Source: Escherichia coli
GTDB lineage: Bacteria > Pseudomonadota > Gammaproteobacteria > Enterobacterales > Enterobacteriaceae
Assembly: GCF_030013595.1 (NCBI RefSeq)
Contig: NZ_CP122768.1
Reading direction: 5' to 3' (one strand)
Length of the DNA: 64,000 bases
Within the stretch, counting starts at the first letter, position 1, and each line of letters opens with the position of its first letter. The position numbers and the translations under genes were made by a program. The notes under the pieces were generated by a model. It had not been told where the DNA came from. It made no database searches and saw only the letters and a list, made by a program, of their open reading frames with translations. Positions 4,688 to 59,226 of the stretch are shown in pieces.

Positions 4688-5659
4688 TTAATGACAGTTC
4701 GGAATATCAGCATCAGTGAGTTGGGTTGTCGCCAGCACAATCTCACGTTCAAAGCCCTGCTCCAGCATGCGCAAGGCAATTTTAATGGCTTGTTCATGCA
4801 TGCCTTCCTGCAAACCTTCTAATTTCCCCTCCTGCCAACCTTCAATTTTACCTTCCTGCCAGCCTTCAATCTTACCTTCCTGCCAGCCAATTTGATGCCC
4901 TTCCTGCCGCAGCCGCTCAGCAATAGTCATCAATCTCTCCTTTTGTAGTGGTGAACGTTCGGCAATCTCCTGAATAAAACGGGTGAAACGGGAGGTATCG
5001 CCGCATTGCAGCAGATAATTAAACAGCGTTTGTAGCTGGCTGTCATTAGTGAAGCCTCTAACCAAAAGCGTGGTGATCCTGTCGACCATACCGATTAAAT
5101 CGCGGTCGCGAATATGCTTTTGAATCAGTTCAAGCAGAGCTATACGCCGATGTTGCATGATCTCATCGTCAGGTACGATGGTGATATCCACCAACGGAAA
5201 AGCTTCGGTGTACAACTGCCGGGCAAGTTGCGGATCGTCAAACTCATCCAGCCAGTTGAGTGAGTACGGGTAGGGCGAGGTTTCGCCATGATAAAACAGC
5301 AATGGCACCACCAGCGGAACTCTGTCATAGCCTTTATCCAGGTGACGCTGCATGGCGGCAGTGGCATAGCGCATTAGCCGAAAAGCCATATTCTTTTCTG
5401 CAGAGCTTTGATGTTCAATCACGCAGTAGATATAGCCTTCACTGTCGCTGGTTTCCACAGACCACAAAACATCCGAGTAGTAAGCGCGTAAACTTTTTTC
5501 AATAAAGCTGGTGGGTTCCAGGCGTAAAGTTTGCAGGTTGCAAAGCTTGCGCAGCGGCTCTGGTAGATGTATTTCCAGAAAATCCCGAGCGGTTTCGGGT
5601 GTGAACATAAAGGTTTTAAACACCGCATCATGCGGGGAGGAGGTTGTTGATTCGGTCAT
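4688..5659 (-). CDS. rpnB: Rpn-family (YhgA-like, PD-(D/E)XK) recombination-promoting nuclease
   Basis: 323-aa ORF with an N-terminal D..E-H-Q nuclease-like motif (YIYCVIEHQ) and a C-terminal WQEGKxEG repeat tail. An internal AAAAGGAGAG + ATG (MTIAERL..) near 4930 sits in frame with the tail. Confidence 0.8.
4801..4896. repeat. four 24-nt tandem units encoding the octapeptide repeat tail of RpnB
   Basis: Units at 4801..4824 (degenerate), 4825..4848, 4849..4872 and 4873..4896. Confidence 0.7.
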
Positions 5660-12636: not shown

Positions 12637-12662
12637 CAGGATGGCATTCATGCGCCATCCTG
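12637..12662. terminator. hairpin between convergent glpQ and the LysR gene
   Basis: CAGGATGGC-attcatgc-GCCATCCTG perfect 9-bp stem. Confidence 0.5.
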
Positions 12663-13547
12663 TCTCATATCAAATTTTCCACTCTCCACTAATTGTTCTG
12701 TGCACATTTGTAGTAAAAACAGTGGACTGCCTTCTACCGGCTTTTCTTTAGCCAGCAACGAAATCTGTCGATAGAAGGTTGGTTCGAGAGGAACGGAACA
12801 CAATTCATCTGCAATGGTTTTCAGCGTTAACTCTGGTAATAAGGCGATGCCTAATCCCTGTCGAATAAAACTGATCGCTGTATCCGGGTGATTAAATTCA
12901 TATTTTATCTGTGGGGTAATATTCTTTTCTTTAAATAGTGCCATAATGCTTAATTCATAGCGTCCTTTACTAATAATTAATGGTTCACCCATTAACTCTT
13001 CCACTGTAATAGTGCTGTTTTTTGCCAGAGCATGGTTGGGCGGTAACACTACGGTGAATTTATCCTGATAAATGGGCACGGAGTACATTCCGCTCACCGG
13101 AAAATGAACAAAACCGGCATCAATGGATTCATTCTGAAGGGAATCAATAATCGCTGTGCTATTTTCCTCAAAAGGAATAATTTTTATATTCGGATGATGA
13201 ATTTCAAAGTAGCGAATCACAGCCGGTAAGATACAGGCGCAGACGCTGGGGAAACAACCAAGTCTCAGCGTTCTTTGAGGGTTCTGCTTTTCCTGCTCGG
13301 CTATCTCTTTTACTGCGTTCACTTCCCGATTAATGGCGCGCAGATGATGCATAATGCGGTGACCTGCAGAGGTCAGTTGTATAGCTTTACGGCGATCGCG
13401 TAACAGTATATTCACGCCAAGTTCTTGTTCGAGGGCAGCAATTGCCTGACTTACCGCCGACTGCGTCATGAACAATCGCTTGCTGGCTTCAGTAAAGCCA
13501 CCGTAATCCAGTACGGCGAGTAAAGAATTTATTTGGGTAAGAGTCAT
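12648..13547 (-). CDS. LysR-family transcriptional regulator (intact counterpart of the K-12 yfaH remnant)
   Basis: 299-aa ORF with N-terminal HTH (..FTEASKRLFMTQSAVSQAIAALE..) and a LysR substrate-binding region; AT-rich coding sequence. Confidence 0.8.
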   Translation of the reverse strand: MTLTQINSLLAVLDYGGFTEASKRLFMTQSAVSQAIAALEQELGVNILLRDRRKAIQLTSAGHRIMHHLRAINREVNAVKEIAEQEKQNPQRTLRLGCFPSVCACILPAVIRYFEIHHPNIKIIPFEENSTAIIDSLQNESIDAGFVHFPVSGMYSVPIYQDKFTVVLPPNHALAKNSTITVEELMGEPLIISKGRYELSIMALFKEKNITPQIKYEFNHPDTAISFIRQGLGIALLPELTLKTIADELCSVPLEPTFYRQISLLAKEKPVEGSPLFLLQMCTEQLVESGKFDMRQDGA

Positions 13548-13682
13548 TAGAGTTTGCTAATCAATAATATTAAAACGATTAATTTCTCTAATAGCATGCC
13601 GCCATTTATACTTCTGTTCTGCAAAGTACATCACAATTTGACGCAACCGCAGTAACGGGAGTGTTGTCTGCGAGCGTCATCC

Positions 13683-13701
13683 TGACAGGCGGTAGGGTAT
13701 G
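13683..13701 (+). repeat. 19-bp direct repeat, copy 1 (tgacaggcggtagggtATG), ending at the MFS start codon
   Basis: 18 of 19 nt identical to 14954..14972. Confidence 0.7.
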
Positions 13702-14889
13702 AAAGAGAAGTTATGGACGAAGGATTTTTGGGCAATAACCATCATCAGCTTTATTATTTTCTTCGTCTTTTATGTTTTACTAACATTGTTGCCAATTTAT
13801 ATCTCTGACCGCTTGCATGCCTCTCCTGATAAAGCCGGTTTATTGGTGACTTTATTTTTAATTGCCGCCATTGTTATTCGCCCATTTGCCGGGCAATGGG
13901 TGGGTAAATACTCGAATAAAACTATTCTGGTGCTCTCTTCTCTGGCCTTTTTATTGGTCACAGCGTTGTATCCTTTTTGCCACTCAATTGAATCACTGCT
14001 TTTTATTCGGGTGCTTCATGGTATTACCTTCGGGGTTATCACTACGGTAAAAGGAACGATTTCCGCGCGGCTGATCCCGGCCTCCCGACGTGGGGAGGGC
14101 ATCAGTTTTTTCTCTCTGGCAATGGGGCTGGCAATGGTGGTCGGGCCGTGGATTGGCCTGAATATGGCGCGCTGGGAGGCCTTTAATATGGCTTTCTGGT
14201 TATGCACCGGCGTGGCAGCGGTGGGGATTATTCTGTCGCTGATTATGACAGTGCCGCCGGTTATCAGCCATGCTGATGGTTCAACGCCGAAAATGGGCTT
14301 CGCCGCCATGTTCGATCGCGCGGCGTTGCCATTTGCGATGGTCACCTTTTTTATGACCTTTTCGTATGCCGGGGTTTCTGCTTTTCTGGCGCTTTATGCA
14401 CGCGAACTTAACCTGATGTCGGCAGCCAGTAATTTCCTGCTTTGCTACGCTATCTTCCTGATGATTTGCCGTACCTTTACCGGCAATGTCTGCGACAAAA
14501 AAGGACCGAAATATGTGGTTTACCCTTGCCTTGTGTTCTTTACGGTAGGACTGGTGGTTCTCGGCTACACCCAGGGAAGCATAATGATGGTTGTTTCTGG
14601 CGCATTGATTGGTATCGGGTATGGTTCCGTGACGCCAGTTTTTCAGACGCAGATTATCAGTTCAGTGGAACCGCATAAAATCGGTGTCGCAAACTCCCTC
14701 TTCTTCAATGCGATGGATGCAGGCCTGGCGCTGGGAGCCTGTGTGATGGGGATGATGGTTGCACATACTGGCTACCGAATGATTTATCTGCTGGGTGCAC
14801 TATTAGTGGTAGTGGCTGGTGGAGTCTATGCGCTGCAAATGAAGGGTAAAAGCGGTGTCGCGCTAGTAGTGGCAAAAGAAATTCATTAA
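13699..14889 (+). CDS. MFS transporter, substrate unknown
   Basis: 396-aa ORF with about 12 hydrophobic segments; transcribed divergently from the LysR gene. Confidence 0.8.
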   Translation: MKEKLWTKDFWAITIISFIIFFVFYVLLTLLPIYISDRLHASPDKAGLLVTLFLIAAIVIRPFAGQWVGKYSNKTILVLSSLAFLLVTALYPFCHSIESLLFIRVLHGITFGVITTVKGTISARLIPASRRGEGISFFSLAMGLAMVVGPWIGLNMARWEAFNMAFWLCTGVAAVGIILSLIMTVPPVISHADGSTPKMGFAAMFDRAALPFAMVTFFMTFSYAGVSAFLALYARELNLMSAASNFLLCYAIFLMICRTFTGNVCDKKGPKYVVYPCLVFFTVGLVVLGYTQGSIMMVVSGALIGIGYGSVTPVFQTQIISSVEPHKIGVANSLFFNAMDAGLALGACVMGMMVAHTGYRMIYLLGALLVVVAGGVYALQMKGKSGVALVVAKEIH

Positions 14890-15623: not shown

Positions 15624-15665
15624 TTGTAGGCCAGATAATACGCGTAAGCGTCGTATCTGGCGCTA
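15624..15665. repeat. REP-like palindromic element
   Basis: gccagataatacgcgtaagcgtcgtatctggc inverted repeat between inaA and yfaE. Confidence 0.5.
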
Positions 15666-15673
15666 GTACCCGA

Positions 15674-15928
15674 TCACAACTCGATTTCAATATCGCCTTT
15701 TGCCCGGCAACAACAGGGCAAAATTTCCCCCGGCTGAATAAAGGCTAACGGTTCGGCAATCCAGTCCACCTGGCCTGCAACAAGGCGCGTGCGACAGGAA
15801 CCGCAGTAACCTTCGCGGCACTGGTACTCAACCGCCACATTGTGGGATTCCAGCGCCGCCAGAAGGGAAGGGTGTTCATCCTGGCACAGCAGTTGTGTGC
15901 CAGTGATGCGCAGGGTAACGCGAGCCAT
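15674..15928 (-). CDS. yfaE: 2Fe-2S ferredoxin associated with ribonucleotide reductase
   Basis: 84-aa ORF with Cys cluster (CREGYCGSC..C); start overlaps the nrdB stop. Confidence 0.88.
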   Translation of the reverse strand: MARVTLRITGTQLLCQDEHPSLLAALESHNVAVEYQCREGYCGSCRTRLVAGQVDWIAEPLAFIQPGEILPCCCRAKGDIEIEL

Positions 15929-17058
15929 CAGAGCTGGAAGTTACTCAAATCGTCGGTGTCCACTTCCGAGTCAATCTGCCCGACCAGATAAGAACTGACT
16001 TCCACTTCCTGCGGAGCAACCTGCACGTTATCAGACACCAGCCAGGTATTGATCCACGGGATCGGGTTGGAGCGAGTCTGGAACGGCAGATCCAAACCGA
16101 CTGCCTGCATGCGGATATTGGTGATGTATTCAACGTACTGGCAGAGAATGTCTTTATTCAGACCAATCATCGAACCGTCACGGAACAGATAATCCGCCCA
16201 GTCTTTCTCTTGCTGTGCCGCCTGGACAAACAGGTCATAGCATTCCTGCTTACATTCTTCGGCAATTTCCGCCATCTCCGGATCATCCGCGCCGCTGCGC
16301 AGCAGATTCAGCATATGCTGAGTACCGGTCAGGTGCAGGGCTTCGTCGCGGGCAATCAGGCGAATAATTTTGGCGTTACCTTCCATCAGCTCACGTTCTG
16401 CAAAGGCAAAGGAACAAGCAAAGCTGACGTAGAAGCGGATCGCTTCCAGCGCGTTAACGCTCATCAGGCAGAGATACAGTTTTTTCTTCAGCTCGCGCAG
16501 GCTAACGGTTACGGTTTTACCGTTAACGGTGTGGGTACCTTCGCCCAGCAGATGCCAGTAGCTGGTCATTTCGATCAGCTCATCGTAATAGCTGGAGATC
16601 CCTTCCGCACGTTTCTGGATCTGCTCGTTGGTGACGATATCATCAAACACAACGGACGGATCGTTAACGATATTACGAATGATATGGGTATAAGAACGAG
16701 AGTGAATGGTTTCTGAGAACGCCCAGGTTTCGACCCAGGTTTCCAGTTCAGGGATCGAGATCAGCGGCAGCAGTGCCACGTTCGGGCTGCGACCCTGAAT
16801 GGAGTCCAGCAACGTCTGATATTTCAGGTTGCTGATAAAGATGTGTTTTTCGTGTTCAGGCAGTGCCTGGTAATCGATACGGTCACGAGAAACGTCAACT
16901 TCTTCCGGACGCCAGAAGAAAGAGAGCTGCTTTTCGATCAGCTTTTCGAAGATGTCATATTTTTGCTGATCGTAGCGAGCCACGTTGACCGGCTGACCAA
17001 AGAACATCGGTTCTTTGAGCTGATCATTTTTCGTCTGTGAAAAGGTGGTATATGCCAT
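15928..17058 (-). CDS. nrdB: ribonucleotide reductase class Ia beta subunit
   Basis: ORF trimmed to the ATG at 17058 ([14 protein letters not shown]..); 376 aa; radical site region [14 protein letters not shown]. Confidence 0.92.
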
Positions 17059-17079
17059 GAATGTGTCCTGTTGGGAGTT

Positions 17080-17198
17080 TAATGCCGGATAAGGCATTTT
17101 ACGCCGCATCCTGTGCCTGATGCGACGCTGGCGCGTCTTATCAGGCCTACAAACCGAGCCGTATGCCGGATAAGGCGTTCACGCCGCATCCGGCATCT
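17080..17198. repeat. REP cluster (BIME) in the nrdA-nrdB spacer
   Basis: Three REP-type palindromes (gccggataaggc..gccgcatcc, gatgcgacgctggcgcgtcttatcaggcctac, gccggataaggcgttcacgccgcatccggc). Confidence 0.8.
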
Positions 17199-17203
17199 CA
17201 ATA

Positions 17204-19489
17204 TCAGATCTTACATGCGCCGCTTTCGCAGCCATCGTCCTGGATTGACGGTACCAGATCGTCCTGCGCGTCTTCAGCGCCGTCACGGGTGTTCTGATAA
17301 TACAGCGTTTTGACCCCGAATTTGTAGGCGGTGAGCAGGTCTTTCAGCAGTTGCTGCATCGGCACTTTTCCTGACGGGAAGCGTGACGGATCGTAGTTGG
17401 TGTTAGCAGAGATCGACTGATCGATAAATTTCTGCATGATACCCACCAGTTGCAGGTAGCCATCGTTACCCGGCATTTCCCACAGCAGCTCATAGGCGTC
17501 GTGCAGATGCTCGTAGTCCGGCACCACCTGGCGCAGAATACCGTCTTTCGACGCTTTGATGCTGACGTAACCGCGCGGCGGTTCAATACCGTTAGTGGCG
17601 TTAGAGATCTGCGAAGAGGTCTCGGACGGCATCAGAGCAGAAAGCGTGGAGTTACGCAGGCCGTGCGTTTTGATTGACTCACGCAGTGCTTCCCAGTCGT
17701 AATGCAGCGGCTCATTAGCGATGGCATCCAGATCTTTCTTATAGGTATCGATCGGCAGGATCCCTTTCGCGTAAGTGGTTTCGTTAAACCACGGGCACGC
17801 GCCTTGCTCTTTCGCCAGCTCATTAGAGGCTTTCAGCAGGTAATACTGAATAGCTTCGAAGGTTTTATGCGTCAGGTTGTTGGCGCTGCCGTCGGAGTAG
17901 CGTTTACCGTGCTTCGCCAGGTAGTAAGCGAAGTTGATCACACCAATACCCAGCGTACGACGACCCATCGCTCCACGTTTGGCGGCCGGGATCGGGTAAT
18001 CCTGATAGTCCAGCAGCGCGTCGAGTGCGCGTACCGCCAGAATCGCCAGCTCTTCCAGTTCATCCAGGCTATTAATTGCGCCCAGGTTGAAAGCAGACAG
18101 CGTACACAGCGCGATTTCACCGTTCTCGTCGTTGACATCATTCAGCGGTTTGGTCGGCAGGGCGATTTCCAGGCACAGGTTAGACTGGCGCACTGGCGCG
18201 ATGGCCGGATCAAACGGGCTATGGGTATTGCAGTGGTCAACGTTCTGAATATAGATACGACCGGTAGACGCACGTTCCTGCATCATCAGCGAGAACAGCT
18301 CAACGGCTTTCACACGCTGCTTGCGGATGCTGTCGTCTTTCTCATATTTGGTGTACAGGCGTTCAAACTCTTCCTGATCGGCGAAGAACGCGTCGTACAG
18401 CCCCGGCACGTCGGACGGGCTGAACAGAGTGATATCTTCACCTTTCAGCAGACGGGTATACATCAGTTTGTTGATTTGTACCCCGTAGTCCATATGACGC
18501 ACGCGGTTGCCTTCAACCCCACGGTTGTTTTTCAACACCAGCAGGCTTTCCACTTCCAGATGCCACATCGGGTAGAACAGCGTAGCCGCACCGCCACGCA
18601 CACCGCCCTGAGAGCAGGATTTCACCGCTGTCTGGAAATGCTTATAGAACGGAATACAACCGGTATGGAACGCTTCGCCACCGCGAATCGGGCTACCCAG
18701 CGCACGAATACGCCCGGCATTGATGCCGATCCCGGCACGCTGGGAAACGTATTTAACAATCGCGCTGGAGGTGGCGTTAATGGAATCCAGGCTGTCACCG
18801 CACTCGATCAGTACGCAGGAGCTGAACTGACGAGTCGGGGTACGCACGCCGGACATGATTGGCGTCGGCAGCGAAATTTTAAATGTGGAAACCGCGTCGT
18901 AAAAACGCTTCACGTATTGCAGGCGCGTTTCACGCGGGTAGTTCGAGAACAGGCACGCGGCAACCAGAATATAAAGGAACTGGGCGCTTTCGTAGATTTC
19001 GCCGGTCACGCGGTTCTGTACCAGATATTTGCCTTCCAGCTGCTTAACGGCAGCATAAGAGAAGGTCATATCACGGTCGTGATCGATAAACGTGTCCATC
19101 TGCTTGAACTCTTCTTCCGTGTAGTCTTCCAGCAGATGATTATCGTATTTGCCCATCTCGACCATTTTCACCACGTGGTCGTACAGCGCAGGCGGCTCAA
19201 ACTGGCCGTAGGCTTTTTTACGCAGGTGGAAGATCGCCAGGCGCGCGGCGAGATACTGATAATCCGGCGCATCACGGGAGATCAGGTCTGCGGCAGCCTT
19301 AATAATGGTTTCGTGGATGTCAGAGGTCTTGATACCGTCATAAAACTGAATGTGGGAGCGCAGTTCGACCTGGGAAATCGAAACGTTATGCAGTCCTTCT
19401 GCCGCCCAATCCAGAACGCGATGGATTTTGTCGAGATTGATGCGCTCTGTGCTACCGTCGCGCTTTGTCACCAGCAGATTCTGATTCAT
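17204..19489 (-). CDS. nrdA: ribonucleotide reductase class Ia alpha subunit
   Basis: 761-aa ORF with N-terminal ATP-cone region; adjacent to nrdB. Confidence 0.93.
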   Translation of the reverse strand: MNQNLLVTKRDGSTERINLDKIHRVLDWAAEGLHNVSISQVELRSHIQFYDGIKTSDIHETIIKAAADLISRDAPDYQYLAARLAIFHLRKKAYGQFEPPALYDHVVKMVEMGKYDNHLLEDYTEEEFKQMDTFIDHDRDMTFSYAAVKQLEGKYLVQNRVTGEIYESAQFLYILVAACLFSNYPRETRLQYVKRFYDAVSTFKISLPTPIMSGVRTPTRQFSSCVLIECGDSLDSINATSSAIVKYVSQRAGIGINAGRIRALGSPIRGGEAFHTGCIPFYKHFQTAVKSCSQGGVRGGAATLFYPMWHLEVESLLVLKNNRGVEGNRVRHMDYGVQINKLMYTRLLKGEDITLFSPSDVPGLYDAFFADQEEFERLYTKYEKDDSIRKQRVKAVELFSLMMQERASTGRIYIQNVDHCNTHSPFDPAIAPVRQSNLCLEIALPTKPLNDVNDENGEIALCTLSAFNLGAINSLDELEELAILAVRALDALLDYQDYPIPAAKRGAMGRRTLGIGVINFAYYLAKHGKRYSDGSANNLTHKTFEAIQYYLLKASNELAKEQGACPWFNETTYAKGILPIDTYKKDLDAIANEPLHYDWEALRESIKTHGLRNSTLSALMPSETSSQISNATNGIEPPRGYVSIKASKDGILRQVVPDYEHLHDAYELLWEMPGNDGYLQLVGIMQKFIDQSISANTNYDPSRFPSGKVPMQQLLKDLLTAYKFGVKTLYYQNTRDGAEDAQDDLVPSIQDDGCESGACKI

Positions 19490-19651: not shown

Positions 19652-20184
19652 CTCAGGAAGGAAAAAGTGGCTTTCGCGCACCTTAGGTCAGACAAGGTGT
19701 CCGGGAAAGTCAATGGGAAGAGAAAAATTTGTTAAAAATAACTGTTCGGCGATTTCTTGAACGGAAGAATAGGTTAGATAAATTGATATAGATGGTTTAT
19801 TAATCTTTTGGCTAATGATTGCAAAAATTGATCTAAGCACGAATCATCGCATAATCTGATGTATCAGTTCTGGTCAATATATAAGCGAATGTAAGCGATT
19901 GTTGATATCGAAATGGTTGTTTTCTCTTCGGTTATTGTTAAATGCGAAGCCATTTTGTTAATTTACCTTATATTATAAGAAAATTATTCATTACTTTAAT
20001 TCAGTTTAAATATAACTAATATCCCTTAAGGTGATTAACTTGAATTATGACGCACTGATATTATTCATGAAATAATAACAAAATAGCCATTGCACGGGGT
20101 TGAACAAATTACAAAAGAAAAATAACCCATATCGTATAATGCGATTAAATATGCCGTCTTATAGAAAATGATGGTCAGATTAAT

Positions 20185-23100
20185 ATGCGGATTATTTTTC
20201 TACGCAAGGAGTATTTATCTTTACTCCCGTCAATGATTGCGTCTCTTTTCTCTGCTAACGGTGTCGCGGCGGCCATTGATTTATGCCAGGGATATGATAT
20301 CAAAGCGAGTTGTCACGCCAGCAGGCAAAGCCTTTCAAGCTTTACGCAGGACTGGAGCATCGCCGATGGGCAATGGCTGGTTTTTTCGGATATGACTAAT
20401 AACGCCAGCGGTGGGGCCGTATTTTTGCAACAAGGAGCGGAGTTTTCTCTATCGCCAGAAAATGAAACTGGAATGACTCTGTTTGCCATTAATACTGTCT
20501 CAGGAGAATATAATAACGGCGGGGCAATATTTGCTAAAGAAAACTCAACGCTGAATCTTACTAATGTTATTTTTTCCGATAACGTTGCAGGTGGCTATGG
20601 TGGCGCAATCTATTCTTCTGGTACTAACGATACCGGTGTCGTCGATTTAAGTGTCACTAACGCCGTGTTTCGCAATAACATCGCTAATGACGGCAAAGGT
20701 GGTGCAATTTATACCATCAACAATGACGTCTATTTAAGTGAAGTTATTTTTGACAATAACCAGGCATATACATCAACAAGTTACAGCGATGGCGATGGGG
20801 GCGCAATCGATGTCACCGATAATAATAGCGATATCACGCATCCGTCAGGTTTCACAATAATAAATAACACCGCATTTACAAATAACACTGCCGAAGGTTA
20901 TGGCGGGGCAATTTATACCAATAGCGTGACGGCTCCCTATCTTATTGATATTTCGATTGATGACAGCTACAGCCAGAACGGCGGCGTGTTACTCGATGAG
21001 AACAATAGCGCGGCAGGTTATGGGGATGGTCCTTCCACTGCGGCGGGCGGCTTTATGTATCTCGGCTTAAGTGAAGTTACCTTTGATATTGCCGACGGAA
21101 AAACGCTGGTTATCGGCAATACAGAGAATGACGGAGCTGTTGACTCTATTGCTGGTACCGGGGTAATCACCAAAACAGGTTCCGGCGATCTGGTACTTAA
21201 TGCAGATAACAATGACTTTACTGGCGAGATGCAGATAGAAAACGGTGAAGTTACCCTGGGCCGCAGCAACTCCCTGATGAATGTCGGCGATACGCATTGC
21301 CAGGACGATCCGCAAGACTGCTACGGTCTGACGATAGGGAGTATTGATCAGTATCAGAATCAGGCTGAGCTAAACGTTGGCTCGACCCAACAAACTTTTG
21401 TGCACGCATTGACGGGCTTTCAGAATGGCACTTTAAATATCGATGCTGGTGGCAACGTTACTGTTAATCAGGGCAGTTTTGCTGGCACCATCGAAGGTGC
21501 TGGTCAGCTCACCATTGCGCAAAACGGCAGCTACGTGCTGGCAGGGGCTCAGTCGATGGCGCTAACTGGCGATATAGTCGTTGATGATGGTGCGGTGCTT
21601 TCACTGGAAGGCGACGCGACAGATCTCGCCGCTCTCCAGGACGATCCGCAGTCGATTGTGGTAAACGGCGGTGTGCTCGATCTCTCTGATTTCTCCACCT
21701 GGCAGAGCGGTACATCATACAACGATGGCCTTGAAGTCAGCGGCAGCGGCGGTACGGTTATCGGCAGTCAGGATGTGGTGGATCTCGCAGGTGGCGACAA
21801 TTTGCATATCGGCGGCGACGGTAAAGATGGCGTCTACGTGGTGATCGATGCGGGCGACGGGCTGGTTAGCCTGGCAAACAATAATAGTTACCTGGGCACC
21901 ACGCAAATCGCTTCCGGTACGCTGGTGGTGAGTGACAACTCGCAGCTTGGCAATACCGACGAAAACCGTCAGCTCATCTTTACTGATAGCCAACAACAAA
22001 GTGAGATGGAAATTACCGCTGACGTTGATACTCGTTCAGAGGCAGCAGGTCACGGGCGTGATATTGAAATGCGCGCCGACGGTGAAGTGGCGGTTGATGC
22101 GGGGGTAGACACGCAGTGGGGCGCACTGATGGCTGACAGCAGCGGGCAGCATCAGGATGAGGGTAGCACATTGACGAAAACGGGGGCGGGTACGCTGGAA
22201 CTGACCGCCAGCGGTACAACGCAGTCGGCGGTACGTGTCGAAGAAGGCACCCTGCAAGGTGATGTTGCGGATATCTTCCCTTATGCTTCGTCGCTGTGGG
22301 TCGGTGACGGGGCAACGTTCAAGACTGGCGCGGATCAGGATATTCAGTCAATTGATGCTACTTCCAGCGGCACTATCGACATCAGCGATGGTACGGTTTT
22401 GCGCCTGACCGGGCAGGATACTTCCGTCGCCCTTAATGCCTCACTGTTTAACGGCAATGGGACGCTGGTGAATGCCACCGATGGCGTGACGTTGACAGGC
22501 GAGCTTAATACCAACCTTGAAACTGACAGCCTGACCTATCTTGCCGACGTGACGGTTAATGGTGATCTGACCAATACGTCCGGTGCGGTTAGCCTGCAAA
22601 ATGGCGTCGCTGGCGATACGCTGACGGTAAACGGTGATTATACCGGCGGCGGTACGCTACTGCTCGATAGCGAATTAAACGGCGATGACTCGGCAAGTGA
22701 CCAACTGGTGTTGAACGGTAATACTGCTGGCAACACGACCGTGGTAATTAATCCCATTACGGGTATTGGTGAGCCGACATCTACAGGTATTAAAGTGGTT
22801 GATTTCGCAGCCGATCCAACGCAATTTCAAAACAATGCGCAGTTCAGTCTGGCGGGCAGCGGCTACGTCAATATGGGCGCGTATGACTACACGCTGGTGG
22901 AAGATAACAACGACTGGTATCTGCGATCGCAAGAAGTAACGCCACCATCGCCACCTGATCCAGACCCGACTCCCGATCCTGATCCCACGCCGGATCCTGA
23001 TCCAACACCCGACCCGGCCCCGGACCCTACGCCTGCCTACCAGCCGGTGTTGAATGCCAAAGTTGGTGGATATTTTAATAACCTGCGGGCGGCAAATCAG

Positions 23101-23949: not shown

Positions 23950-23998
23950 TGCGCCCGGCATTGTAGCCGGATGTGGTGCGAGCACCTTATCCGGCTAA
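23950..23998. repeat. REP-like palindromic element
   Basis: gccggatgtggtgcgagcaccttatccggc between the yfaL and ubiG 3' ends. Confidence 0.5.
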
Positions 23999-24003
23999 CA
24001 ATT

Positions 24004-44416: not shown

Positions 44417-47266
44417 TTGAAATACCTTGCTTCTTTTCGTACAACCCTGAAAGCCTCGCGCTACATGTTCAGAGCATTGGCGTTAGTGCTCTGGCTGTTG
44501 ATTGCTTTTTCATCCGTTTTTTACATCGTTAATGCGTTACATCAGCGAGAATCGGAAATTCGTCAGGAATTTAATCTGAGTTCCGATCAGGCTCAGCGCT
44601 TTATTCAACGTACCTCTGATGTGATGAAAGAGCTGAAGTACATCGCTGAAAATCGCTTATCGGCAGAAAACGGTGTGCTTTCCCCGCGTGGACGAGAAAC
44701 GCAGGCGGATGTGCCTGCGTTTGAACCGCTGTTTGCCGACTCCGATTGTTCCGCAATGAGTAACACCTGGCGAGGCTCTCTGGAGTCATTGGCGTGGTTT
44801 ATGCGCTACTGGCGCGATAATTTTTCTGCGGCTTACGATCTCAACCGGGTATTTTTAATCGGCAGCGATAACCTCTGCATGGCCAATTTCGGTCTGCGTG
44901 ATATGCCAGTGGAACGCGATACCGCGTTGAAAGCGTTGCATGAACGCATCAATAAATATCGAAATGCACCACAAGATGATAGCGGCAGTAACCTCTACTG
45001 GATCAGCGAAGGTCCGCGCCCTGGCGTCGGGTATTTTTACGCGTTGACGCCAGTTTATCTGGCGAACCGGTTGCAGGCGCTTTTGGGTGTCGAGCAGACC
45101 ATCCGGATGGAGAACTTTTTCTTACCTGGTACGTTGCCGATGGGGGTTACCATTCTTGATGAAAATGGTCATACCCTGATTTCGCTTACCGGACCAGAAA
45201 GCAAAATTAAGGGCGATCCTCGCTGGATGCAGGAACGCTCCTGGTTTGGCTATACGGAAGGGTTCCGGGAGCTGGTGCTGAAGAAAAATCTGCCACCCTC
45301 ATCGCTAAGCATCGTGTATTCGGTGCCGGTTGATAAGGTGCTGGAACGCATTCGCATGTTGATCCTTAACGCAATTTTGCTGAATGTGCTTGCCGGAGCT
45401 GCATTGTTTACTCTCGCGCGGATGTACGAGCGACGTATTTTCATTCCGGCGGAAAGCGACGCCCTGCGACTGGAAGAACATGAGCAGTTTAATCGCAAGA
45501 TTGTCGCCTCCGCGCCAGTGGGTATCTGCATTTTGCGTACCGCTGATGGCGTCAATATTTTAAGTAACGAACTGGCGCATACCTATCTCAATATGCTTAC
45601 GCATGAGGATCGCCAACGACTGACGCAAATTATCTGTGGGCAGCAGGTCAATTTTGTTGATGTCCTGACCAGCAACAATACCAATCTGCAAATCAGCTTC
45701 GTCCATTCGCGCTATCGTAATGAAAACGTGGCCATTTGTGTGCTGGTGGATGTTTCTTCGCGCGTGAAGATGGAAGAGTCGTTGCAGGAGATGGCACAAG
45801 CAGCGGAACAGGCGAGCCAGTCAAAATCGATGTTCCTTGCCACCGTCAGTCATGAGCTGCGAACGCCGCTGTATGGCATTATCGGTAACCTGGATCTGTT
45901 GCAAACCAAAGAGTTACCGAAAGGCGTCGATCGTCTGGTGACGGCAATGAACAACTCTTCCAGCCTGTTGTTGAAAATTATCAGCGATATTCTCGATTTC
46001 TCGAAAATTGAATCAGAACAGTTGAAGATCGAACTGCGTGAGTTTTCACCGCGTGAAGTGATGAACCATATCACCGCCAACTATTTACCGCTGGTGGTAC
46101 GCAAGCAGCTAGGCTTGTACTGCTTTATTGAACCGGATGTGCCAGTGGCCTTAAATGGCGACCCGATGCGTTTACAGCAGGTCATCTCCAACCTGTTGAG
46201 TAACGCCATAAAATTCACCGATACCGGCTGTATAGTTTTGCATGTTCGCGCTGATGGCGATTATCTCTCTATCCGCGTTCGCGATACCGGCGTGGGGATT
46301 CCGGCGAAAGAAGTGGTGCGCTTGTTTGATCCCTTCTTCCAGGTCGGAACGGGCGTACAGCGTAACTTCCAGGGGACCGGTCTGGGGCTGGCGATTTGTG
46401 AAAAACTGATCAGCATGATGGACGGCGACATCTCGGTAGATTCAGAACCGGGAATGGGCAGCCAGTTTACCGTGCGTATTCCGTTGTACGGCGCTCAGTA
46501 CCCGCAGAAAAAAGGCGTGGAAGGGTTGAGTGGTAAACGCTGCTGGCTGGCGGTCCGCAATGCGTCGCTCTGTCAGTTCCTGGAAACCAGTTTGCAGCGC
46601 AGCGGCATCGTCGTTACAACATACGAAGGGCAGGAACCGACTCCCGAAGATGTGTTAATCACTGACGAGGTAGTGAGTAAAAAATGGCAGGGCAGAGCGG
46701 TAGTGACCTTCTGTCGTCGCCATATTGGTATTCCGCTGGAGAAAGCGCCAGGGGAGTGGGTACACAGTGTGGCTGCCCCGCATGAGCTACCGGCATTGTT
46801 GGCGCGTATTTATTTGATCGAGATGGAGAGCGACGATCCTGCTAACGCTCTGCCGTTAACGGACAAAGCGGTCAGCGATAATGACGATATGATGATTCTG
46901 GTCGTGGATGATCATCCGATTAACCGACGTCTGCTGGCAGATCAGTTGGGATCGTTGGGTTATCAATGTAAAACCGCGAATGATGGCGTCGATGCGCTTA
47001 ATGTACTTAGCAAGAATCATATTGATATCGTGCTTAGCGACGTCAACATGCCAAATATGGATGGTTACCGCTTGACGCAACGCATTCGTCAGTTGGGACT
47101 GACGTTGCCGGTAATCGGAGTAACTGCTAATGCGTTGGCTGAAGAGAAGCAGCGGTGTCTGGAGTCCGGTATGGACAGCTGCCTGTCGAAGCCGGTAACG
47201 CTGGATGTGATAAAACAGACGCTAACGGTATATGCCGAGAGGGTCAGGAAATCGCGGGATTCGTAG
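44417..47266 (+). CDS. rcsC: hybrid sensor kinase of the Rcs phosphorelay
   Basis: 949-aa ORF with H-box SHELRTPL and C-terminal receiver domain; the ORF start at 44417 is a TTG. Confidence 0.9.
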   Translation: MKYLASFRTTLKASRYMFRALALVLWLLIAFSSVFYIVNALHQRESEIRQEFNLSSDQAQRFIQRTSDVMKELKYIAENRLSAENGVLSPRGRETQADVPAFEPLFADSDCSAMSNTWRGSLESLAWFMRYWRDNFSAAYDLNRVFLIGSDNLCMANFGLRDMPVERDTALKALHERINKYRNAPQDDSGSNLYWISEGPRPGVGYFYALTPVYLANRLQALLGVEQTIRMENFFLPGTLPMGVTILDENGHTLISLTGPESKIKGDPRWMQERSWFGYTEGFRELVLKKNLPPSSLSIVYSVPVDKVLERIRMLILNAILLNVLAGAALFTLARMYERRIFIPAESDALRLEEHEQFNRKIVASAPVGICILRTADGVNILSNELAHTYLNMLTHEDRQRLTQIICGQQVNFVDVLTSNNTNLQISFVHSRYRNENVAICVLVDVSSRVKMEESLQEMAQAAEQASQSKSMFLATVSHELRTPLYGIIGNLDLLQTKELPKGVDRLVTAMNNSSSLLLKIISDILDFSKIESEQLKIELREFSPREVMNHITANYLPLVVRKQLGLYCFIEPDVPVALNGDPMRLQQVISNLLSNAIKFTDTGCIVLHVRADGDYLSIRVRDTGVGIPAKEVVRLFDPFFQVGTGVQRNFQGTGLGLAICEKLISMMDGDISVDSEPGMGSQFTVRIPLYGAQYPQKKGVEGLSGKRCWLAVRNASLCQFLETSLQRSGIVVTTYEGQEPTPEDVLITDEVVSKKWQGRAVVTFCRRHIGIPLEKAPGEWVHSVAAPHELPALLARIYLIEMESDDPANALPLTDKAVSDNDDMMILVVDDHPINRRLLADQLGSLGYQCKTANDGVDALNVLSKNHIDIVLSDVNMPNMDGYRLTQRIRQLGLTLPVIGVTANALAEEKQRCLESGMDSCLSKPVTLDVIKQTLTVYAERVRKSRDS

Positions 47267-47347
47267 GACGGATAAGGCGTTTACGCCGCATCTGGCATTC
47301 AGTGCAAATGCCAGATGCGACGCTGACGCGTCTTATCTGGCCTACAG
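47266..47347. repeat. REP pair (BIME) between convergent rcsC and rcsB
   Basis: ggacggataaggcgtttacgccgcatctggca and gccagatgcgacgctgacgcgtcttatctggcctac. Confidence 0.8.
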
Positions 47348-51002: not shown

Positions 51003-51095
51003 AAAAAAAACCGGATGCGAAGCATCCGGTTGAAATAGGGGTAAACAGACATTCAGAAATGAATGACGGTAATAAATAAAGTTAATGATGATAGC
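51003..51095 (-). ncRNA. micF: MicF antisense sRNA, divergent from ompC
   Basis: Minus strand reads GCTATCATCATTAACTTTATTTATTACCGTCATTCATTTCTGAATGTCTGTTTACCCCTATTTCAACCGGATGC..GCATCCGGTTTTTTTT with a terminal hairpin and T-run. Confidence 0.85.
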
Positions 51096-51259
51096 GGGAG
51101 TTATTCTAGTTGCGAGTGAAGGTTTTGTTTTGACATTCAGTGCTGTCAAATACTTAAGAATAAGTTATTGATTTTAACCTTGAATTATTATTGCTTGATG
51201 TTAGGTGCTTATTTCGCCATTCCGCAACAATCTTAAAAAGTTCCCTTCTATTTACATTT

Positions 51260-59099: not shown

Positions 59100-59226
59100 A
59101 TGCCACATCCGGCATGGTATGCCGGATGTGGCTTATGCTGATAAGACGCGCCATCGTCGCATCAGTCAACCGGCTCGGGCGTTAGATGTCGGATGCGGCG
59201 TGACCGCCTTATCCGACCTACGGGGT
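59100..59226. repeat. REP cluster (BIME) between mqo and eco
   Basis: Several REP palindromes (tgccacatccggcatggtatgccggatgtggc; gataagacgcgcc..; ggatgcggcgtgaccgccttatccgacctac). Confidence 0.8.

Follow-up and report, generated by a model that had tools for sequence, protein, structure and literature searches.

The first descriptions of REP/BIME elements date from 1984. The BIME-2 class was defined as y and z2 units joined by short linkers (Ton-Hoang et al. 2012, PMC3333891), and variation in copy number from locus to locus was described as a property of BIMEs (PMC3333891). The K-12 counterparts of the clusters analysed here were listed as BIME-2s (PMC6379681 supplement). The K-12 nrdA–nrdB BIME-2 was assigned gyrase cleavage values of 2, 3, 0, and 3, and the eco–mqo BIME-2 values of 11, 7, 2, and 5, for Cfx, RifCfx, Micro, and Oxo, respectively (PMC6379681 supplementary table DS3). 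The gyrase cuts of Espeli & Boccard 1997, in the form in which they were tabulated in the PMC6379681 supplement, numbered 2 at nrdA–nrdB and 6 at eco–mqo. REP stem-loops were described to impede 3′ exonucleases (PMC12306157; PMC12320835). In addition, REPs located 15 nt or less from a stop codon were described to stall ribosomes, and nrdAB is one of the transcripts for which this was reported (Liang, Rudd & Deutscher 2015, cited in PMC12306157). The K-12 nrdA–nrdB BIME-2 was catalogued as a target of gyrase, and it was also a published case of translation control through REPs.

REP units of the window

The window, the whole stretch of 64,000 nt that was analysed, contained the glp–nrdAB–gyrA–rcs–ompC–mqo/eco region of the E. 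coli chromosome. According to the annotations of K-12 and of the closest public record, CFSAN018748, the gene order was glpQ, LysR/MFS, inaA, yfaE, nrdB, nrdA, yfaL, ubiG, and gyrA, followed by ato, rcsC, rcsB, rcsD, micF/ompC, mqo, eco, and nap. The names nrdB–nrdA, rcsC–rcsB, and mqo–eco, given to the spacers in the earlier note, agreed with those annotated in homologous records of E. coli. At 12648..14889, between glpQ and inaA, where K-12 has only the yfaH pseudogene, the window had an intact LysR-family regulator and, divergent from it, an MFS transporter. An ISNCY-family transposase gene was located at 4688..5659 (−) between yfaU and glpC, following the annotation of the homologous CFSAN018748 record.

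Five sites in the window hold copies of the REP family that is dispersed in the E. coli genome. The 34-nt REP consensus of the literature, GCCGGATGCGGCGTGAACGCCTTATCCGGCCTAC, as quoted in PMC12306157, gave three matches in the window at no more than 3 mismatches, at 17161–17194 (1 mismatch), 47263–47296 (3 mismatches), and 59188–59221 (3 mismatches), against 0.00 expected from shuffles. The REP tail motif, CTTATCMGGCCTAC, was matched 7 times against 0.32 expected, each time within one of the five sites. A profile HMM whose only sources were a published y consensus, a z2 consensus, and both hairpins in the Rfam consensus of naRNA4 recovered nine REP units at E ≤ 1e-3 exclusively at the five sites, and the next match in the 64-kb window had an E value of 0.22. 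The Rfam naRNA4 model (RF02564), which represents a Y-l-Z2 REP unit, also matched the five sites and nothing else in the window. It exceeded its gathering threshold of 59.5 bits at rcsC/rcsB only (73.8 bits), and the other four sites, including mqo/eco (54.8 bits) and nrd (53.7 bits), were below it. Across 5,425 E. coli genomes, a query containing the nrd spacer recurred many times, with a median of 28 or more places in each genome.

A REP-family motif scan had been named in advance as the test of the earlier note, and it returned REP matches at every site. The arrays that the note had placed at 17080..17198, 47266..47347, and 59100..59226 were found essentially there by consensus, HMM, and naRNA4, all of them intergenic, and its single REP-like elements at 15624..15665 and 23950..23998 were both recovered by the profile HMM, the tail motif, and naRNA4. 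The list of five sites was complete, with no tenth HMM unit at E ≤ 1e-3 elsewhere in the window.

The REP units were imperfect palindromes of 35–38 nt, arranged as inverted repeats, with unit hairpins of −9 to −24 kcal/mol. All nine aligned as one 13-pair consensus hairpin with an internal mismatch, seen as an unpaired column pair, and compensatory double changes were present among the nine copies at 5 of the 13 pairs. The GTAG/CTAC foot was intact in five units, namely the nrd z2 unit, the inaA/yfaE unit, both rcs units, and the mqo y unit. In the remaining four, the nrd y unit had GTAT, the degenerate nrd y unit had lost the foot, and CTAC was replaced by TAAC at yfaL/ubiG and by TAAG in the mqo z2 unit. 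Each of the five sites was extragenic, lying between stop codons or in the nrdA–nrdB spacer.

Outside the nrdA–nrdB spacer, all sites were located between convergent genes. A single z2-like REP at 15626..15663 (+) lay between inaA and yfaE, at the 3′ end of the nrdAB-yfaE operon, and its stems began 9 nt past the stop codon of inaA and 12 nt past that of yfaE. A single y-like REP with the degenerate foot was located at 23962..23999 (+) between yfaL and ubiG. Between rcsC and rcsB, a y and z2 pair was located at 47263..47345 (+), in which y (47263–47297) and z2 (47309–47345) faced each other head to head across a linker of 11 nt. The TAG stop of rcsC lay within the GTAG of the REP (47263..47266), so that the REP started inside the rcsC coding sequence. 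In K-12, the rcsC–REP junction was identical and the entire y–z2 pair after it was duplicated in tandem; the array measured 85 nt in the window strain against 199 nt in K-12. Within rcsC, a sub-threshold Rfam match to the Rev24 antisense RNA was also observed at 45220..45674 (−), at 119.8 bits where the gathering score is 246; it probably represents conserved rcsC coding sequence rather than an RNA gene.

The cluster between mqo and eco, at 59100..59221 (+), was composed of a perfect 14-bp hairpin (59100–59134), a degenerate z2-like unit (59132–59170), and a y unit (59186–59221), with a linker of 15 nt between z2 and y. The 14-bp hairpin consisted of two y head halves. The mqo–eco spacer was 149 nt in the window strain against 714 nt in K-12, where at least 10 units were present. 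In CFSAN018748, otherwise the closest genome, the 14-bp hairpin was partly absent through a 28-nt gap and a 2-nt gap (21758..21876 there).

The gap from stop codon to stem was 7 nt for nrdA, 9 nt for inaA, 12 nt for yfaE, 6 nt for ubiG, 2 nt for rcsC, 10 nt for rcsB, and 6 nt for mqo. Seven of the nine flanking genes hence had a REP stem no more than 15 nt from their stop codon, the exceptions being yfaL (20 nt) and eco (27 nt).

All clusters in the window were of y and z2 units and BIME-2-like, and the nrdA–nrdB cluster, with alternating y and z2 units and short linkers, is by its sequence of the BIME-2 type. No unit of the clusters scored best as z1, and no long linker was present either. 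The IHF consensus, WATCAANNNNTTR, occurred in the window only at 51161 and 63983, in none of the clusters. An assignment to BIME-1/RIP with IHF binding was rejected for clusters that had neither z1 nor a long linker nor an IHF consensus, and for the same reasons the IHF part of the earlier proposal, that these elements bind gyrase or IHF, does not apply here. The gyrase part is plausible and agrees with the cleavage of BIME-2s in K-12 (PMC6379681). A full-length MicF sRNA was located at 51003..51096 (−), upstream of ompC, with 118.7 bits, and one of the two IHF matches lay nearby at 51161..51173.

The nrdA–nrdB spacer in E. coli and other species

The nrdAB-yfaE operon was located on the minus strand of the window. 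The ORF list and the annotation of homologous records placed nrdA, the class Ia ribonucleotide reductase alpha subunit of 761 aa, at 17204..19489 (−), nrdB, the beta subunit of 376 aa, at 15928..17058 (−), and yfaE, 3′ of nrdB, at 15674–15928 (−). The interval 17059..17203 was exactly the nrdA–nrdB spacer, 145 nt from the nrdA stop codon TGA (17204–17206, −) to the nrdB ATG (17056–17058). A putative nrdB Shine-Dalgarno sequence, AGGA, at 17066..17069 (−) lay between the last REP unit and this ATG, 10 nt from the former and 7 nt from the latter. Beside the spacer, CFSAN018748 additionally carried a partial nrdB together with a partial ribonucleotide reductase pseudogene (19736..20359). Both were absent from the window, and they suggest either a duplication at this place or an error in the assembly of that record.

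On the mRNA (minus) strand, the spacer contained three REP units in the order y, z2, and degenerate y. Unit 1, of y type, at 17161..17196 (−), had one mismatch to the published consensus and a GTAT foot in place of GTAG on the plus strand. In the RNA, its stem began at 17196, 7 nt past the nrdA stop. A C-to-A change converted the foot from CTAC to ATAC and gave two extra base pairs compared with K-12, and the hairpin was calculated at −24.3 kcal/mol against −21.3 kcal/mol in K-12. A 10-nt tail-to-tail linker (17151..17160, −) separated unit 1 from unit 2, of z2 type, at 17114..17150 (+), which was inverse to the y units and had an intact CTAC foot and a hairpin of about −21 kcal/mol. Unit 3, the degenerate y unit, at 17080..17113 (−), abutted the z2 unit head to head with a 0-nt linker; its foot tetranucleotide was lost and its hairpin was weak, at about −10 to −12 kcal/mol. 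The degenerate unit also supplied the last codons and the TAA stop of a homologue of YoaM, an 11-aa small protein annotated in K-12, which lay antisense across the nrdB start (17057..17092, +).

The whole spacer RNA folded at −66.5 kcal/mol, with z = −4.4 against shuffles. In the minimum free energy fold, the two y units were paired together around the z2 hairpin instead of forming three local hairpins, and the exact structure of the spacer RNA in vivo is uncertain. No sigma-70-like promoter was found on a scan of the spacer, and an internal nrdB promoter within the spacer was rejected for want of a promoter-like site. The terminator scan of the minus strand from 16800 to 17500 returned no site.

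A 901-bp stretch around the spacer was matched over at least 80% of its length by 5,415 of 5,426 complete E. coli genomes, and the spacer itself differed widely in length. REP-bearing alleles had roughly 3 to 5 units. The 233-nt spacer of K-12, with the arrangement y–z2–y–z2–y′, accounted for about 36% of a spread sample of 59 genomes. The window type of 145 nt, equivalent to the K-12 spacer minus one 88-nt y–z2 unit, was found in about 19% of the genomes sampled, a 226-nt spacer, as in O157:H7, in about 7%, and a 189-nt spacer, containing a y unit and a shorter z1-like unit twice, in about 5%. An 88-nt spacer with no REP was carried by 1,684 of the 5,426 complete genomes, an exact count equal to 31%, which means that REP control of NrdA is neither essential nor universal in E. 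coli. The identity of the nrd cluster, its geometry, the calculated RNA fold, and its variation among strains were all shown directly.

The 88-nt spacer had a core hairpin, CCCCTCTCCCC/GGGAGAGGG, starting about 29 nt after the nrdA stop, and occurred once per genome at megablast sensitivity. Its G/C-tract palindrome, which is possibly boxC-like, had no copy in the window. In this allele (E. coli Z0117EC0032, 55989), the CCCCTCTCCCC/GGGAGAGGG-TTAGGGTGAGGGG element resembled the long G/C-tract palindromes of Enterobacter, Lelliottia, and Pseudocitrobacter.

When GTDB representative genomes were scanned for the NrdB N-terminus, 72 loci were found, and the nrdA–nrdB spacer was recovered for 61 and scored for 60. 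Among these representatives, E. coli-type y/z2 REPs in the spacer were confined to Escherichia, apart from single weaker matches in Citrobacter and Salmonella. The spacers of E. albertii, E. whittamii, Escherichia sp. MOD1-EC7003, and Escherichia sp. E1V33 contained 5, 3, 3, and 1 units, respectively. Other REP subtypes with CCTAC feet were present in Salmonella, Citrobacter, Klebsiella, Kosakonia, and Leclercia, long G/C-tract palindromes in Enterobacter, Lelliottia, Pseudocitrobacter, and Pluralibacter, and a plain GC hairpin in Pantoea, Enterobacter soli, and strain LSJC7. E. albertii, E. whittamii, Escherichia sp. MOD1-EC7003, and every REP-bearing E. coli allele examined had a gap of 7–9 nt from the nrdA stop to the first stem.

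A hairpin of −10 kcal/mol or stronger, starting no more than 15 nt past the nrdA stop, was found in 50 of 60 species, and the control gave 24 of 37 genes in the window. With a threshold of −16 kcal/mol, the values were about 77% of species, which are not independent, against 46% of window genes. The placement of a hairpin after the nrdA stop is suggestive of conservation across species, and it was taken as a lead and not as a result, because 24 of the 37 window genes satisfied the lax threshold and the species are not independent. It is improbable that the slot after the nrdA stop is under selection for a strong stem-loop across Enterobacteriaceae and is filled by lineage-specific repeat families. 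If this were true, E. coli strains with the natural alleles of 0, 3, 4, and 5 REPs would differ heritably in their NrdA:NrdB stoichiometry and, through it, in dNTP supply.

Possible roles of the nrd cluster

The REP cluster would be transcribed within the nrdAB-yfaE mRNA and would form very stable stem-loops. Since the first stem lies 7 nt after the nrdA stop, a terminating ribosome would have to melt it first. Ribosomes may consequently stall at the nrdA stop, which would lower the output of NrdA relative to NrdB. The hairpins could also block 3′-to-5′ exonucleases as a second, non-exclusive effect, and the y/z2 cluster, as DNA, may be a target of gyrase cleavage. A literature search on nrdA/nrdB with REP returned nothing locus-specific. 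In the study of Liang and colleagues, stalling is said to lead to mRNA cleavage and trans-translation, and at nrdAB the effect was reportedly partly reversed by overexpression of RNA helicase and overcome after UV stress. The window allele has the geometry of that case, with a gap of 7 nt, and translational down-regulation of NrdA relative to NrdB is therefore the best-supported mechanism. The joint reading, of a three-REP BIME-2-type cluster that lowers NrdA relative to NrdB through ribosome stalling, blocks exonucleases, and serves as a gyrase target, is considered very probable; its functional parts, namely stalling, mRNA protection, and gyrase binding in this strain, are carried over from the literature and would apply here by analogy. 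The gyrase or RAYT activity of K-12 need not transfer to this strain, whose allele contains 1.5 BIME-2 units and has a mutated GTAG in its first y unit.

The earlier note had proposed that the copy inside the operon may tune the ratio of alpha to beta subunit. This idea was already in the literature, because nrdAB is a reported example of REP stalling, and it was published there as translational down-regulation of NrdA (PMC12306157).

A first alternative, held to be possible but less than likely, is that the REP array is a neutral or selfish passenger, which accumulated at a tolerated intergenic site and has no selected role in nrdAB expression. Such an array would expand through RAYT activity or unequal recombination. 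The polymorphism of the locus in presence and copy number, with spacers of 88, 145, 189, 226, and 233 nt, is consistent with this explanation, as are the strong strain differences of the rcsC–rcsB and mqo–eco arrays, the degenerate units without a GTAG foot, and the different repeat families that other genera hold in the same spacer. However, an effect on the nrdAB transcript was reported in the literature (PMC12306157), the gap from stop to first stem was constant in all REP-bearing Escherichia alleles examined, and a stable hairpin of some kind followed the nrdA stop in nearly all sampled Enterobacteriaceae.

The same modest chance was given to stabilisation of mRNA as the main role, in which the stem-loops would shield the upstream nrdA from 3′-to-5′ exonucleases and raise NrdA relative to NrdB. 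The hairpins of units 1 and 2 were very stable (−20 to −27 kcal/mol), the spacer had no terminator, and REPs are exonuclease barriers in the literature (PMC12306157; PMC12320835). Stabilisation of the upstream mRNA had been put forward in the earlier note. The effect reported for REPs so near a stop codon is nevertheless reduced translation, which is the opposite direction for NrdA, and for nrdAB the documented effect was lowered NrdA translation and not simply stabilisation (PMC12306157).

Stalling at the nrdA stop was also weighed against a dominant role at the DNA level, in which the BIME-2 would act as a gyrase site that manages supercoiling in a strongly cell-cycle-regulated operon. Gyrase cleavage of the K-12 nrdA–nrdB and eco–mqo BIME-2s, which persisted or rose after rifampicin (PMC6379681), points in this direction, but gyrase cleaves only a subset of BIME-2s (PMC6379681), the window allele has fewer units than that of K-12, and the nrd spacer has no such element in one third of E. 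coli genomes. A dominant role of this kind is unlikely. An intrinsic terminator or attenuator in the nrdA–nrdB spacer is highly implausible, since none of the REP hairpins was followed by a U-run on the mRNA strand and the minus-strand scan was empty, even though the spacers of Enterobacter soli and Enterobacteriaceae LSJC7 hold a plain GC hairpin and then a T-rich stretch.

Comparison with described systems

The REP clusters of the window are real, were correctly identified, and were already known, being ordinary REP/BIME copies. The modest added value lies in the population picture, in which the nrd element is polymorphic in E. coli and unrelated palindromes replace the REPs in other genera.

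When the window sites were compared with the REP/BIME-2 family, they shared palindromes matching the consensus, the conserved stem mismatch, the alternation of y and z2 units, and the short linkers. They also shared the extragenic location, the multiple copies per genome, and the variation in copy number from strain to strain. The BIME-2 at the nrd locus differed in having 1.5 units in this strain, compared with 2.5 in K-12.

The naRNA4/REP325 element (RF02564; Qian et al. 2015, PMC4550694) has a two-hairpin Y-l-Z2 unit, which it shares with the window pairs. The naRNA4 match reflects this shared REP sequence and does not imply an HU-binding RNA from the window loci. The BIME-1/RIP type, composed of y and z1 units with a long IHF-binding linker, has the y REP in common with the window clusters, whereas the z1 unit, the linker, and the IHF site are missing here.

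The nrdAB case of Liang et al. (2015, Mol Cell 58:431) concerns the same locus, and in both alleles a REP stem follows the stop codon of nrdA within 15 nt, at 7 nt in the window and at 9 nt in K-12. The window allele differed from it in having 3 REPs against 5, and its first stem was two pairs longer.
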